Source of the DNA: Hahellaceae bacterium
GTDB taxonomy: Bacteria; Pseudomonadota; Gammaproteobacteria; Pseudomonadales; Oleiphilaceae
Assembly: GCA_016716085.1 (NCBI GenBank)
Contig: JADJWY010000001.1
Span: forward strand, 423,437-487,436
DNA length: 64,000 nucleotides
Reading direction: 5' to 3'
The notes under the pieces are model-generated. The model was not told where the DNA came from, did not search any database, and saw only the letters and a list, made by a program, of their open reading frames with translations. Positions within the stretch are counted from its first letter, which is position 1, and every line of letters begins with the position of its first letter. The translations under genes and the position numbers were made by a program. Shown in pieces: positions 34,068-39,173 of this stretch.

Positions 34068-34814
34068 ATGAAAAAGGACGTTAACCTCCACTCACTCTAC
34101 GAAAATGAGACCACGCGACAAAAATACCGTCGACTGGTCGCAGGCCAATATGCTTCCGGGAGACGCTGGATGCTCCAGGAATGCGCTTTGACCCTACTCG
34201 AAGGCATCGGTGGCGCCCTCGGCTTGGTTCTGAGAAAACTGGTCTACCCACGCATTTTTCGCGGCATTCACAGGTCTGTCATCATTGGGCGAAACGTCCT
34301 GCTTCGGTGCCCGGTCCAGATCAGGCTAAACGCGAAAGTCATTATTGATGATACCGTGCAGCTAATCGCTAATTCAGATGCCAGAGAAAGTATTACCTTG
34401 GGCGAAAATGCATTTATCAGAAGCTTTGCCTGCCTCAATGCCGGCCCTCCTTCCGGGTTTATAAAGATCGGAAAAAACTCAGGCATCGGGCAAATGAGCG
34501 TGCTCTATGGTAACGGTGGCTTAACCATTGGGGACAATGTCATGATCGCAGGTCAATGCTTTATCGTTGCCTCCAGTCATCGCTACGACCAATCCGACGT
34601 ACCGATTATGTTTCAAGGCATTACTGCAAAAGGGATTGTGATTGAAGACGATGCCTGGATCGGCGCAGGCGCAAAAATTCTGGATGGCGTCACCATTGGC
34701 AAGGGTGCCATCGTCGCTGCGAACGCCGTGGTGACGAAGGATGTGGCAGCTGGGGCACGTGTGGGCGGCGTTCCCGCACGGCTGCTTTCGAGCCCGAAAG
34801 TGCCCGATCTTTAA
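34068..34814 (+). CDS. Hexapeptide-repeat sugar O-/N-acyltransferase
   Basis: Left-handed beta-helix repeats ([14 protein letters not shown]...[31 protein letters not shown]). Confidence 0.8.
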
Positions 34815-35770
34815 CCTTTGTTATCCAGCGACTTTTTAAGCCATGCCCGTAAAATCAGAACGCCAGCAATCGATGCTTCAACACTCATCAGCCAGATACG
34901 GCTCGTTACCGACAGCAGGGCCGCCTCACCTGCAGGCAAATGCGTAACCAGTAAAAAATACAAAACGCCCTCCCGAATGCCAAGCCCCCCCGGGGAAATC
35001 GACGCTATAAAACCGATTGAAAAGCTGACGGGAAATGCCATTGCCGCAATCAGCATTTCCTTGCTATCCAGGTTGATCAGAGCGCTGCAAAAAATCGCAA
35101 ATACGAAGCCAAAGAGCATCCAGAAAATACAGTAATACAGCGCAATTGACGTCAGCGTTTGTGGGCTTAGAACGGTCAAATGACCCAGGTACTTGTCTCT
35201 GAGTGCCGTGAACGGTCGGAACCGTCTTAGTAACATCCAGACGAGCAGCGCACCCACGACAATCACCGCCACCACTGTCATAACTCTGAACATATTTTCG
35301 TCTAGCAAGAAGTAAGACAGAGGTGCTGCGAGCGCGATTGACGTTCCCGCCAGGTAGAGATTTTCCAGCAGCATACTGGAGGCCGTTGCACGCCGATCAA
35401 CCCCTTCCTTGTGGCTCATTTCAATTCTGGACACATAGGGCCAAATCACGCCTGGAATATAACGACTGAGTGCCGAATAAAACCAGATAAACATCCCAGG
35501 GCCGACCGGGAGTGGCTGTCCCAGCCGCCTCATGATGATGATCCAGCCCATGGCGTCGGCCAGGAAAATCAGAACCAACACACCGATTGAAACGGCAAGC
35601 ATTGGCAGATTAATCGTAAATAGGGATCTGTCGACGGATTCTGTCAAGCTCAACAACTGATAGGAAAGAAAGCAAAATGCCAGGAGGGGGACCGCGTATC
35701 GGGCGATACGCTTAATCAAGAGGAAACGGGGAAATTTCGGTTGACCTGACACCGCGGGCGAATCCTTCAC
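34811..35770 (-). CDS. UPF0104 / LPG_synthase_TM-type polytopic membrane protein (flippase-like)
   Basis: About 8 hydrophobic helices across 319 codons. The C-terminal [10 protein letters not shown] motif is typical of the MprF flippase-domain family. It is the last gene of the trio. Confidence 0.65.
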
Positions 35771-35793
35771 GTTAGCCGCCTGAAAATTCCCAT

Positions 35794-36675
35794 CTAATCG
35801 TTTCGGTAAAGCAGACTAGTCACCTGCTCAGACACCAGACCGATCAGAAAAATAACGACCGAGGTGCTCAATAGCAAGGCACTCATGTTGGTAAATCGAC
35901 CGTCCGTCAAATAGGTAAAACCGTAATAGCCCAATCCTACGCTCGCAAACAGCATGCTGAGTGGAAAGAATATCTTGAGGGGTGAATACAGTGTCCCAAT
36001 CTTAAAGATGATCAGCAGGAAACGGGTACCATCCTTGAGCAATCGAATGTGGCTCTTGCCAAGACGTTTCTCGACAGTGATCGGCTCATAACCAACCGAG
36101 TAACCTGCCCTGAAAAAAGCCATCGTCGAGGTGGTTGGATAAGAAAACCCATTGGGAAGCAAACTCAAAAACTCTCTAAACTTGCTTAAATTGACCACTC
36201 GAAAGCCAGAAGTCAGATCATCCACGGTGTGCCCCACCATCCACGACGCCAGCGTATTGTATAAGGAATTTGCCACCCACCGACCCTTGCTGGCTTGAGA
36301 AACGCGAGCCCGCGCACCGACCACCAAGTGGTAACCCTCATGGTATTTAGCCAGAAGCTTCGCAATTTCGTCAGGACGATGCTGCCCATCACCGTCCATC
36401 AACACCAAAATCTCACCTGCCGCGGCCCGCGCCCCTGTTTTTACTGCGGCACCATTACCTTTGCTGTAATTGTGGGTAATGACTCTCACGCCACTTGCTT
36501 TACAGACCTCAATGGTATCGTCGGTCGAACCGTCATTGACGACAATGACTTCAGCCTCGGGATAACGCCGGACGATTTCCGGTAATAGCTTTTCTAACGA
36601 CCGTGCTTCATTTTTTGCCGGAATTACAATTGAAATTTTTTCGCTCACTATTTGTCTCTCAATCATAGGGGGCAA
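35794..36675 (-). CDS. GT2 polyprenol-phosphate glycosyltransferase (GtrB/ArnC/DPM1-like)
   Basis: ISIVIPAKNE, VVNDGSTDDT and LMDGDGQHRP (DXD) motifs, plus two C-terminal TM helices. It overlaps the upstream gene by 8-17 nt depending on the Met used. Confidence 0.85.
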   Translation of the reverse strand: MPPMIERQIVSEKISIVIPAKNEARSLEKLLPEIVRRYPEAEVIVVNDGSTDDTIEVCKASGVRVITHNYSKGNGAAVKTGARAAAGEILVLMDGDGQHRPDEIAKLLAKYHEGYHLVVGARARVSQASKGRWVANSLYNTLASWMVGHTVDDLTSGFRVVNLSKFREFLSLLPNGFSYPTTSTMAFFRAGYSVGYEPITVEKRLGKSHIRLLKDGTRFLLIIFKIGTLYSPLKIFFPLSMLFASVGLGYYGFTYLTDGRFTNMSALLLSTSVVIFLIGLVSEQVTSLLYRND

Positions 36676-38644: not shown

Positions 38645-38689
38645 ACAGGCCAATGTGGAGATCAAAGCATTATAAATATTTACAGACCG

Positions 38690-38717
38690 GAAAAGAAAAA
38701 AGGGGGCCTGGCCCCCT
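38690..38717 (-). terminator. Rho-independent terminator directly after pilA
   Basis: On the minus strand: GGGGGCC-A-GGCCCCC followed by TTTTTTCTTTTC. It starts 7 nt after the pilA stop. Confidence 0.85.
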
Positions 38718-38723
38718 TCAAAA

Positions 38724-39173
38724 TCAGCTTGGACGACACTGGGCTGGCAGGTACTTGGCATCGATTGCACTTGCACCACCTGGGCGACACAACCAACCAA
38801 TTCGACCAGCATCCGTGTTGTTCGGCGTCAGAGTAATCGTATCGCCGGCGACAGTAGTCGGAAGTCCGGTAGCTGCCAGCGTAATCGTTATTACACCAGA
38901 GGCACCTACACTCACTGAACGTACAGAGTTGCCATTGATACTTGCGGCAACGGGCAATCCAACACTCGCGTTAGTAGAGGGTAAACGGCCCTGTGATGCC
39001 CAGTATTCCGACACCCCCGTCTTGGCAGCCGCGGCCAATGACAGACCCTCTGTCACCTTCGCACGCACGGTGTAATCCTGATAGGCCGGAATCGCAACCG
39101 CAGCCAGAATACCGATGATCGCAACCACGATCATTAATTCAATCAATGTAAAACCTTTCTGCATATTTCTCAT
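38724..39173 (-). CDS. pilA: Type IVa major pilin PilA
   Basis: Leader MRNMQKG then [27 protein letters not shown] (G-1/F+1/E+5). C-terminal disulfide loop C...C, ending CRPS. GGAGA RBS. Start moved to Met18 of the track ORF. Confidence 0.93.

Follow-up and report, generated by a model that had tools for sequence, protein, structure and literature searches.

We analyzed a 64,000-nucleotide stretch of DNA (hereafter, the window) from a Hahellaceae bacterium (GenBank assembly GCA_016716085.1, contig JADJWY010000001.1, positions 423,437 to 487,436), in which pilA, the gene for the major type IV pilin, is followed by a trio of co-directional genes. These encode a GT-C glycosyltransferase with a C-terminal domain resembling tetratricopeptide repeats (TPRs), a family 2 glycosyltransferase (GT2), and a protein of the LPG_synthase_TM family. 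Judged from sequence, structure prediction and analogy, the locus is likely to be a pilin O-glycosylation island of the type represented by TfpW, a pilin glycosyltransferase of Pseudomonas. The link of the GT-C trio to the pilin is real: dozens of genomes, drawn from several lineages of proteobacteria, share the arrangement of pilA, a GT-C gene and its partners, which is far more than chance would give. Novelty as a new kind of system is not supported, the design of the enzyme and its use on pilin being already known. What the island offers is an enzyme of the TfpW type set in a variant cassette, in which a lipid-sugar synthase is encoded in cis, the flippase is interchangeable, and the tailoring region varies.

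Organization of the pilA Locus

The genes and domains of the core locus, with coordinates as positions in the window and the evidence in brackets, are as follows.

38724-39173, minus strand: pilA, major type IVa prepilin (list of open reading frames [ORFs]; Pfam Pilin 4e-25, N_methyl 7.5e-11)
36659-38644, minus strand: TfpW-like GT-C glycosyltransferase, 661 amino acids (aa) (AlphaFold2, Foldseek, homologues)
37337-38644, minus strand: predicted GT-C membrane domain, residues 1-436, 11 helices (AlphaFold model)
36662-37336, minus strand: predicted periplasmic TPR-like domain, residues 437-661 (AlphaFold model)
38477-38482, minus strand: codons of the putative catalytic acidic residues D55 and D56, where periplasmic loop 1 starts (conservation)
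35794-36666, minus strand: GtrB/DPM1/ArnC-like GT2, of the polyprenyl-phosphate sugar synthase class; 290 aa when read from the ATG (Pfam, NCBIfam, Protein Data Bank [PDB])
34811-35770, minus strand: LPG_synthase_TM (MprF flippase-domain family) protein, 319 aa, candidate flippase (PF03706)

An earlier note on this DNA had described three packed, co-directional minus-strand genes 80 nt behind the pilA stop codon. All four ORFs (pilA, GT-C, GT2 and LPG_synthase_TM) do lie on the minus strand at these coordinates, and the spacer between the pilA stop and the ATG of the GT-C gene (38644) measures 79 nt. A mechanically derived GT-C ORF of 717 aa, starting at 38812 inside pilA, was rejected, because the 100%-identical database protein has 661 aa.

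The pilA product is a prepilin of 149 aa with a 7-aa leader, giving a mature pilin of 142 aa that contains 26 Ser/Thr residues. It has the features of a type IVa pilin, i.e., a leader ending in Gly, an N-methylatable Phe, and a hydrophobic N-terminal helix with Glu5, and its C-terminal Cys residues (WLCRPGG...PAQCRPS) match the C-terminal disulphide loop of such pilins. PilA is the presumed acceptor substrate of the glycosylation genes.

A GT-C Glycosyltransferase with a Periplasmic TPR-like Domain

Sequence models gave little guide to the 661-aa protein. In Pfam it matched only a marginal TPR model (TPR_14, 3.2e-5, in the C-terminal ~225 aa) and in NCBIfam nothing, and no model in either database covers the GT-C membrane domain. 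The families PMT_2 (PF13231), DUF1736 (PF08409) and PMT (PF02366) did not match the window protein at E ≤ 0.01, nor any of 21 transmembrane (TM) domains of the family at E ≤ 1. A profile search of the PDB with the full-length alignment also returned TPR proteins only.

Structure prediction was more informative about the membrane domain. The full-length AlphaFold2 model (predicted local distance difference test [pLDDT] 91.3, predicted TM-score [pTM] 0.91) contains an all-helical repeat domain at residues 439-661. When this model was used in Foldseek, Pmt4 ranked first in the PDB and TPR proteins came next. Because TPR matches swamped the full-length search, the TM domain (residues 1-445; pLDDT 85.5) was also modelled alone. 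Eight of its ten best matches were then GT-C enzymes (Pmt4, STT3/OST, Pmt1-Pmt2, PglB, ArnT), with probabilities of 0.84-1.00 and TM-scores of 0.31-0.45 (E = 2.9e-4 for Pmt4), whereas the lone non-GT-C match among the top ten had a probability of 0.41.

The short loops on one side of the predicted membrane domain are rich in K/R and the long loops on the other are acidic, which, by the positive-inside rule, places the N terminus in the cytoplasm and the C terminus outside it, so that the TPR-like domain would be periplasmic. Residues 49-60 (SGGLVFDDKPNL) immediately follow the first TM helix, with the sequence G-L-V-F-D-D at 51-56. Alignment of 44 homologues showed D55, D56, R88, H117, Q170-R171-M172, K220-E221, R286, R293, Y304 and E384-H-R-N-Y388 to be invariant. 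D55 and D56 were also invariant among 21 aligned homologues, and the DD pair is kept in 98 of 102 copies from 80 genomes. The invariant polar residues (D55, D56, R88, Q170, R171, K220 and R286/R293) map to five predicted periplasmic loops or to membrane edges, as do Y304, E373 and the EHRNY sequence at 384-388. A near-invariant pair of Cys residues in the TPR-like domain, C499/C541, fits an oxidizing periplasm.

These models and alignments identify the protein as a GT-C glycosyltransferase with a predicted periplasmic acidic site. The earlier note's account of a polytopic protein of about 660 aa, with G-L-V-F-D-D in its first loop and a TPR-like C terminus, is therefore sound: the protein has 661 aa, Foldseek finds the GT-C fold, and the acidic first-loop site is present and invariant. 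The likeness to eukaryotic TMTC proteins that the note had drawn holds for the architecture. As a family assignment it was rejected, there being no match of the 21 TM domains to DUF1736, PMT_2 or PMT in Pfam.

The family to which the protein belongs is large and unnamed, and lies outside every modelled sequence family. It has at least 1998 homologues, nearly all of ~640-660 aa, and at E ≤ 1e-30 a TM-domain profile retrieved at least 8,421 representatives of clusters built at 50% identity. Public names of the homologues include "tetratricopeptide repeat protein", "hypothetical" and even "LapB".

Comparison with TfpW

The closest known counterpart is TfpW, which was compared through its published description. 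TfpW, the product of the gene that comes immediately after pilA, has 646 aa, a cytoplasmic N terminus, 11 predicted TM helices with conserved residues concentrated in periplasmic loops 1-5, an essential DDX in periplasmic loop 1, a proline-rich YX6PFX7P in loop 4, and, at its C terminus, a sizeable TPR domain in the periplasm (10.1101/2020.04.19.049825). ArnT was its best fold template and the TPRs of OGT its best C-terminal match, and pilA-linked homologues of 29.9-47.1% identity were reported in Azotobacter, Acinetobacter venetianus, Teredinibacter, P. indica and Kingella (10.1101/2020.04.19.049825).

The window protein resembles TfpW of P. aeruginosa/P. paraeruginosa group IV (Pa5196, PA7) in its slot after pilA, its length (661 versus 646 aa), its N-in topology with 11 TM helices, its five periplasmic loops with conserved residues, and its periplasmic C-terminal TPR domain, the topology and domains being as predicted. 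The loop-1 DDX has its equivalent in F-D55-D56-K directly after TM1, and of the loop-4 proline motif the Y-X6-P half is present; an ArnT-like GT-C fold combined with OGT-like TPR matches, as reported for TfpW, was likewise seen here. The lineages with TfpW homologues (Acinetobacter, Cellvibrionaceae/Teredinibacter, Pseudomonadaceae/Azotobacter) are also lineages of the window family, many members of which occupy this locus in Acinetobacter, Pseudomonas/Stutzerimonas and Cellvibrionaceae. Its abundance at that locus in Acinetobacter and Pseudomonas/Stutzerimonas makes identity with the TfpW family very likely. From the descriptions, which agree in every feature compared except the second half of the proline motif, we regard homology between the two proteins as highly probable. 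WP_130134296.1, WP_028883051.1, WP_090729738.1 and TfpW itself (AAM52060.1/PSPA7_5160) were absent from the best 120 matches, all of them close relatives, to each of three seeds (the window, Ectopseudomonas and Acinetobacter lwoffii proteins), and WP_130134296.1 was not in the ten Acinetobacter clusters looked up.

These findings bear on the claim that no TPR-bearing enzyme had been shown to glycosylate a type IV pilin. That claim falls, TfpW having been described as just such an enzyme, and its presentation in the earlier note as a plain GT-C arabinosyltransferase omits its periplasmic C-terminal TPR domain (10.1101/2020.04.19.049825). The window island does differ from TfpW loci in having a GtrB/DPM1-like GT2 and a flippase-like gene in cis and no tfpX after the GT-C gene. 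Translational coupling of such a GT2 to the GT-C gene is a trait of the window and of over half of the family. We found no description of a GT2-coupled form of the pilin GT-C enzyme in the literature searched.

The GT2 and LPG_synthase_TM Partners

The GT2 gene overlaps the GT-C gene with either of its possible starts. The likelier is the ATG at 36666, with an 8-nt overlap between start and GT-C stop (ATGATTGA); the TTG listed at 36675 would give an overlap of 17 nt. The product matches Pfam Glycos_transf_2 (PF00535; 5.5e-30) and carries VVNDGSTDD and LMDGDGQH motifs together with a pair of hydrophobic helices as its C-terminal membrane anchor, so that the earlier description of a GT2 with DGS..D/DGDGQH motifs and two C-terminal helices, overlapping the GT-C gene, stands in full. 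Its top NCBIfam relatives were AglJ, PgfS (second), PpgS, a haloarchaeal dolichyl-phosphate hexose transferase and ArnC; none of these matches reached its equivalog cut-off (109.7 bits against 325 for AglJ). Its best relatives of solved structure were Pyrococcus DPMS (5mlz, 4.6e-13), ArnC (9hwj/9bhc/8vxh, 4.8e-13) and GtrB (5ekp, 1.5e-10), in keeping with the earlier placement in the group of polyprenyl-phosphate sugar synthases. By its sequence relatives the GT2 is such a synthase; as it reached no equivalog cut-off, the assignment is to the class and not to a particular sugar.

The third gene begins 23 nt past the GT2 stop. Its product scored 57.8 bits against PF03706 (cut-off 33.4), covering profile positions 21-292 of 302, as expected from its earlier assignment to the LPG_synthase_TM type, and no solved relative was found by sequence. 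It probably flips the lipid-linked product of the GT2, a candidate role that follows from its family membership and from the adjacency to a GT2 gene in the window and in 12 other loci. To our knowledge, no member of the LPG_synthase_TM family has a shown role in flipping undecaprenyl-phosphate sugars for protein glycosylation.

Synteny with pilA in Related Genomes

Synteny was scanned in one genome per species; 592 relatives were returned, and 80 loci were kept, of which 72 were evaluable for neighbours. In 56 of these 72 loci the first GT-C gene had a co-directional pilA gene no more than 600 nt upstream of it, often within ~100-200 nt, and most of the others had pilA divergent or pilBCD close by. 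The survey of co-occurrence that the earlier note had proposed thus indicates that the GT-C gene tracks pilA and not O-antigen loci. The loci spanned Moraxellaceae, Pseudomonadaceae, Alcanivoracaceae, Cellvibrionaceae, Lysobacterales, Methylococcales, Chromatiales, Betaproteobacteria and Magnetococcales.

A GT2 gene whose product was 51-68% identical to that of the window directly followed the GT-C gene in 41/72 loci; by clustering, it occurred in 46/80 loci. It was the most conserved partner, with a mean p-distance of 0.48, as compared with 0.64 for the GT-C membrane domain, 0.65 for the pilin and 0.80 for the TPR domain. The least conserved partner was the LPG_synthase_TM gene, relatives of which stood beside the GT2 gene in 12/80 loci. 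At other loci the flippase slot was taken by a Wzx-like protein (in seven loci, among them L067) or by an exporter of the ABC type (L043). Depending on the lineage, transporters of three unrelated kinds seem to fill it. In locus L043, from Acinetobacter lwoffii, an MsbA-like ABC exporter of 574 aa (8711-10432 of that locus) comes straight after the GT2 gene and is itself followed by a gene for an NAD-dependent epimerase/dehydratase, which we read as RmlB-like.

Beyond the GT2 gene the content was hypervariable. The 115 non-redundant clusters of downstream ORFs included 19 methyltransferase, 12 further GT2, five further LPG_synthase_TM and four sulfotransferase clusters, together with Wzx-type flippases, GT4 genes, nucleotide-sugar enzymes, and one set resembling Arn genes (Ugd, aminotransferase, WbqC, formyltransferase). 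At the other extreme, the minimal islands of SAR86 and Pseudohongiella comprised pilA, GT-C, GT2, LPG_synthase_TM and one methyltransferase gene, followed by nadC and other housekeeping genes, which shows that the trio is able to stand alone.

Two or three tandem GT-C/TPR paralogues followed pilA in 20/80 loci. These copies are old, with a median identity of 27%, and have remained intact at the putative catalytic residues, DD being present in 21/22 later copies and EHRNY being kept. The tandem loci include L002, L003, L013, L015, L027, L035, L041, L042, L044, L047, L053, L061, L063, L064, L072, L073 and L077, with GT-C genes from ~6000. Loci with two pilA genes often had two GT-C genes, usually with no adjacent GT2 gene. 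This pairing suggests either one enzyme per pilin or sequential addition of sugars.

Two further observations concern particular loci. In L045 (7980-13800) and L041 (~10000-13845), an Arn-like set (UDP-glucose dehydrogenase, DegT aminotransferase, WbqC, formyltransferase and a Wzx-like protein) lies after the GT2 or GT-C gene, which hints at an amino- or formamido-sugar donor there. In L023, L031, L039, L048 and L071 (SAR86/Pseudohongiella; ~4400-6000), the GT-C gene runs divergently from one or two pilA genes, and a conserved gene of ~250 aa (cluster c17), with no Pfam match, lies between pilB and pilA.

Proposed Mechanism of Pilin Glycosylation

We propose, as the likely reading of these data, the following scheme. 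Strong transcription of pilA would be passed in part, through a hairpin behind its stop codon, into the three co-directional genes. At the cytoplasmic face of the membrane, the GT2 would load undecaprenyl phosphate with a sugar taken from a nucleotide sugar, and the lipid-linked sugar might be extended or tailored in the cytoplasm by a GT4, an amidotransferase, methyltransferases and an acetyltransferase encoded by adjacent genes. Its passage to the periplasmic face would come next, and in this island the LPG_synthase_TM protein is probably responsible for it. There the 11-helix GT-C enzyme, using the D55-D56 site, would transfer it to Ser/Thr residues of the membrane-anchored pilin prior to assembly, while the C-terminal TPR-like domain would hold the pilin. 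Pilin glycosylation shields pili from pilus-specific phages and alters pilus surface chemistry, and, by analogy with TfpW, masking of the pilus from such phages is the likely benefit. The earlier note had also inferred a pilin glycosylation system; the GT-C fold, the synteny with pilA and the precedent of TfpW uphold this part of it, although neither the single sugar that it proposed as product nor its claim of novelty held up.

Several observations weigh against the scheme. The YX6PFX7P motif of TfpW is only half matched, Y304 (102/102 copies) and P311 (98/102) being kept but the F and the second P (+9) not being conserved. Mirror-tree covariation between the pilin and the GT-C protein was weak and not specific to the TPR domain (partial correlations of 0.17, p 0.014, for the TPR domain and 0.19, p 0.017, for the membrane domain), and was not used as evidence. 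An adjacent GT2 gene was missing in 31/72 loci and an LPG_synthase_TM gene was present in only 12/80, so that the trio is one of several configurations. Finally, in some genomes the genes past the GT2 gene resemble a general surface-polysaccharide locus (Wzx, several GT4), and the donor may be shared with lipopolysaccharide (LPS) or capsule.

The Convergent Tailoring Cluster and the Size of the Glycan

Seven plus-strand genes for building and tailoring glycans, which the earlier note had not described, abut the trio convergently (Pfam/NCBIfam assignments throughout).

27106-27840, plus strand: methyltransferase
27833-29041, plus strand: GT4
29041-30918, plus strand: AsnB-like amidotransferase
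30959-31723, plus strand: methyltransferase
31725-32852, plus strand: radical SAM/SPASM protein
32877-34055, plus strand: methyltransferase
34068-34814, plus strand: hexapeptide acetyltransferase

This cluster (27106-34814) probably belongs to the same island as the trio. We take 27106-39173 as probably a single island because homologues of the convergent genes recur beside the module in other genomes: GT4 homologues in 23/80 loci (directly after the GT2 gene in 10), AsnB-like and GT4 homologues in L030 and L024, and homologues of the 392-aa methyltransferase and the acetyltransferase in L072. The best NCBIfam relatives of the radical SAM/SPASM protein (31725-32852) were cofactor and peptide maturases, all far under cut-off.

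The cluster bears directly on whether the same enzymes might transfer to the same acceptor not a single sugar, as the earlier note had supposed, but an oligosaccharide or polymer. This could come about in two ways: the GT2 might prime undecaprenyl phosphate, on which the GT4 and tailoring enzymes would build a modified di- or oligosaccharide before flipping, the GT-C enzyme then acting as an oligosaccharyltransferase; or the GT-C enzyme might polymerize the sugar in the periplasm, as proposed for TfpW. In Haloferax, AglJ and later enzymes build a glycan on dolichyl phosphate, and AglJ is the best NCBIfam relative of the window GT2. A product of several sugars would also suit the recurrence of GT4 genes, one of which lies in the window island, the D-arabinofuranose (D-Araf) oligomers attached by TfpW, the tandem GT-C paralogues with intact catalytic residues, and the frequency of methyltransferases, sulfotransferases, extra GT2s and Wzx-type flippases in the variable region. 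However, the minimal islands hold just the GT2, the flippase-like gene and one methyltransferase besides the GT-C gene; the products of GtrB-type enzymes are normally monosaccharide donors, as in the Gtr, Arn and PMT systems; and the convergent cluster is tied to the trio by recurrence, not by operon structure. Overall, we regard a multi-sugar product as possible though rather unlikely. The single sugar of the earlier note was nonetheless an over-reach: GT4 recurrence, the TfpW oligomers and the catalytically intact tandem GT-Cs all argue against assuming a monosaccharide, and the island itself carries a GT4, an amidotransferase, methyltransferases, a radical SAM/SPASM protein and an acetyltransferase.

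Alternative Acceptors, Donors and Functions

The trio might instead decorate LPS, capsule or another envelope glycan in the manner of Gtr or Arn systems, its position next to pilA being incidental and the site an island hot spot. The logic of GT2, flippase and GT-C is indeed that of GtrABC, ArnC/EF/T and CsbB/GtcA/YfhO, and the downstream genes are O-antigen- or capsule-like in several loci. The region is also island-like in composition: GC content is 0.45-0.51 over 30500-39000 (tailoring cluster, trio and pilA) and 0.53-0.58 on both flanks, a dip consistent with a horizontally exchanged or diversifying island. Against an envelope glycan as acceptor stand the co-directional position of the GT-C gene behind pilA in distant lineages (the 56/72 loci above), the frequent pairing of two pilA genes with two GT-C genes, the TPR-like domain, which suggests a protein acceptor, and TfpW, which is alike in architecture and position and is a proven pilin glycosyltransferase. 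In ORF and Pfam/NCBIfam scans the island genes included neither Wzy or another polymerase, nor Wzz or another chain-length regulator, nor any export gene, and this speaks against an O-antigen or capsule locus. Carriage by phages or plasmids, as for the mobile Gtr cassettes, was rejected too, the plasmids and viral contigs searched having yielded no relatives of the GT-C family. An LPS or capsule function is thus improbable.

In an orthodox TfpW system, D-Araf would be added to the pilin from DprE1/DprE2/phosphoribosyltransferase genes located elsewhere, and the GT2 and LPG_synthase_TM proteins would serve another pathway. TfpW is needed for pilin glycosylation and uses a polyprenyl-phosphate-linked donor, polyprenyl-phosphate D-Araf, which is made from phosphoribosyl pyrophosphate via DprE1/DprE2-type enzymes; the genes of this pathway are linked to pilA in P. 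indica and Kingella and unlinked in P. aeruginosa PA7. An unlinked pathway would agree with the PA7 arrangement, and the enzyme itself has the architecture and position of TfpW. However, the start of the GT2 gene overlaps the stop of the GT-C gene, and the GT2 is the most conserved partner, diverging less (0.48) than the GT-C membrane domain (0.64). Neither UbiA nor FAD_binding_4 nor any DprE-type family was seen where the window was annotated (17-34.8 kb, and most ORFs ≥200 aa in 44-63 kb), and of the 25 families that occurred most often downstream of the GT-C gene over the 80 loci none belonged to the D-Araf pathway. We consider orthodox arabinosylation very improbable here.

That the 661-aa protein is no enzyme at all but a TPR-type factor in pilus assembly or stability, like PilF/PilW or an accessory such as TfpY, is scarcely credible: TPR proteins do act in pilus biogenesis, with PilF (2ho1) among the TPR structure matches, and the pilA-linked accessory proteins TfpX/Y/Z are non-enzymatic (PMC11841053), but the GT-C fold, the DD pair and a dozen further invariant periplasmic-loop residues kept over 102 copies, and the coupled GT2 all point to catalysis.

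Regulatory Elements around pilA

Two candidate elements flank pilA.

38697-38719, minus strand: hairpin resembling an intrinsic terminator, with a T-run, directly after the pilA stop (GAAGGGGGCCAGGCCCCCTTTTTTCTTTT)
39251-39265, minus strand: sigma-54-type -24/-12 element (TGGCACAAGCCCTGC), candidate pilA promoter, ~80 nt upstream of the pilA ATG

The hairpin at the distal end of pilA, absent from the earlier description, is strong: its stem has 9 bp, six of them GC pairs, and TTTTTTCTTTT comes next. Expression of an accessory gene behind pilA has been described as being set, in a conserved manner, by a stem-loop between the two genes (PMC11841053). By analogy, the hairpin probably attenuates read-through from pilA into the glycosylation genes. 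A perfect TATAAT also occurs at ~38667-38672, just downstream of the hairpin and before the GT-C start. Together, the hairpin and the TATAAT suggest attenuation of read-through, possibly with a weak internal promoter; a scan of the region for sigma-70 promoters did not exceed shuffled expectation.

The sigma-54-type element has one mismatch to TGGCAC-N5-TTGC, and the number of such matches over the whole window is at chance level. Its position fits that of the RpoN/PilR-dependent pilA promoters of Pseudomonas. The sequence is a weak candidate for the pilA promoter.

Relation to Other Glycosylation Systems

Eukaryotic TMTC1-4 resemble the window protein in having a GT-C membrane domain, an acidic first-loop motif and then TPRs on the lumenal (here, periplasmic) side. 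TMTC and PMT enzymes also parallel the scheme proposed here in using a polyprenyl-phosphate monosaccharide donor made by a DPM1-type GT2 and a Ser/Thr acceptor in protein, and Pmt4 is the best solved structural match of the window GT-C, with modest TM-scores. Unlike them, the window protein has no sequence match to PMT, PMT_2 or DUF1736; PMTs carry MIR domains, not TPRs, and the helical-repeat domain here is short (~225 aa) in contrast to that of TMTC.

The GtrA/B/C, ArnC/ArnEF/ArnT and CsbB/GtcA/YfhO systems, and the pentofuranose systems (Kelly et al. 2024), use the same logic of synthase, flippase and GT-C enzyme, and the window GT2 is related to GtrB and ArnC. In these three-component systems, however, the acceptors are LPS, lipid A, teichoic acids and polysaccharides, not protein; the flippases are GtrA or ArnEF (small multidrug-resistance-like), not LPG_synthase_TM; and the GT-C enzymes lack TPRs. 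TfpO/PilO and PglL/PglS share Ser/Thr of type IV pilin as substrate, and TfpO occupies the same slot after pilA, but these enzymes are Wzy_C/O-antigen-ligase-like, use pre-assembled undecaprenyl-pyrophosphate oligosaccharides, and have no GT2 partner or TPR. In the Pgf system of Streptococcus mutans (the GT2 PgfS, PgfM1/PgfM2 and the epimerase PgfE), a GtrB-like GT2 works with polytopic GT-C-like transferases in protein O-glycosylation, as would the trio; it differs in being Gram-positive, with surface adhesins as substrates, no TPR domain and no link to pilin. The MprF flippase domain and HpnL-type proteins share PF03706 with the third window protein and a proposed transmembrane movement of a lipid-linked head group, although MprF flips lysyl-phosphatidylglycerol.

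We know of only a few pathogens in which pilin glycosylation has been worked out so far, through TfpO/PglL and TfpW. The present survey suggests that enzymes of the TfpW type occur widely among Gammaproteobacteria, both environmental and clinical (Acinetobacter johnsonii, A. lwoffii, Stutzerimonas, Marinobacter, Alcanivorax, Lysobacterales and methanotrophs, for example), usually with their own lipid-sugar synthase. We put forward tentatively, at somewhat less than an even chance, the idea that the arabinosylating TfpW of P. paraeruginosa is an atypical offshoot of a very large, pilin-dedicated GT-C/TPR family of self-contained cassettes. If this were so, the common form would combine pilA with between one and three GT-C/TPR genes and a GtrB-like synthase of undecaprenyl-phosphate sugar; the flippase would be exchangeable (LPG_synthase_TM, Wzx-like or ABC), and the tailoring genes would make up a hypervariable set of methyl-, sulfo-, acetyl- and amido-transferases. 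Such cassettes would be the counterpart in bacteria of the DPM1/TMTC pathway, varying the surface of the pilus much as LPS is varied by O-antigen loci, and would provide the first role in protein glycosylation for LPG_synthase_TM proteins. The compactness of the cassettes opens the donor sugar, the flippase and the TPR rule for pilin selection to direct tests. No new principle is involved, and a specialist would not be surprised; the use of the locus lies in mapping an unannotated and very large GT-C family, to which it points and for whose catalytic domain Pfam and NCBIfam have no model, and in the chemistry of pilin glycans.

Other Features of the Window

One neighbouring group of pilus genes was taken from the ORF list.

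39515-43395, plus strand: pilB, pilC and pilD (assembly ATPase, platform protein and prepilin peptidase)

With coaE, these genes form a group (pilBCD-coaE, 39515-44061) divergent from pilA, and their products are 45-79% identical to those at the related loci. At the left border of the island, a mechanically derived ORF of 184 aa (26383-26937, minus strand) contains a cold-shock domain only at residues 121-181, and its start is probably over-extended. The sole Rfam match in the window is a t44 RNA (18792-18880, minus strand; 57 bits) upstream of rpsB-tsf. Two other features are unrelated to the glycosylation island: a 779-aa ORF with no Pfam match (50103-52442, plus strand) and a DUF1329/DUF1302 outer-membrane pair (53615-56864, minus strand).

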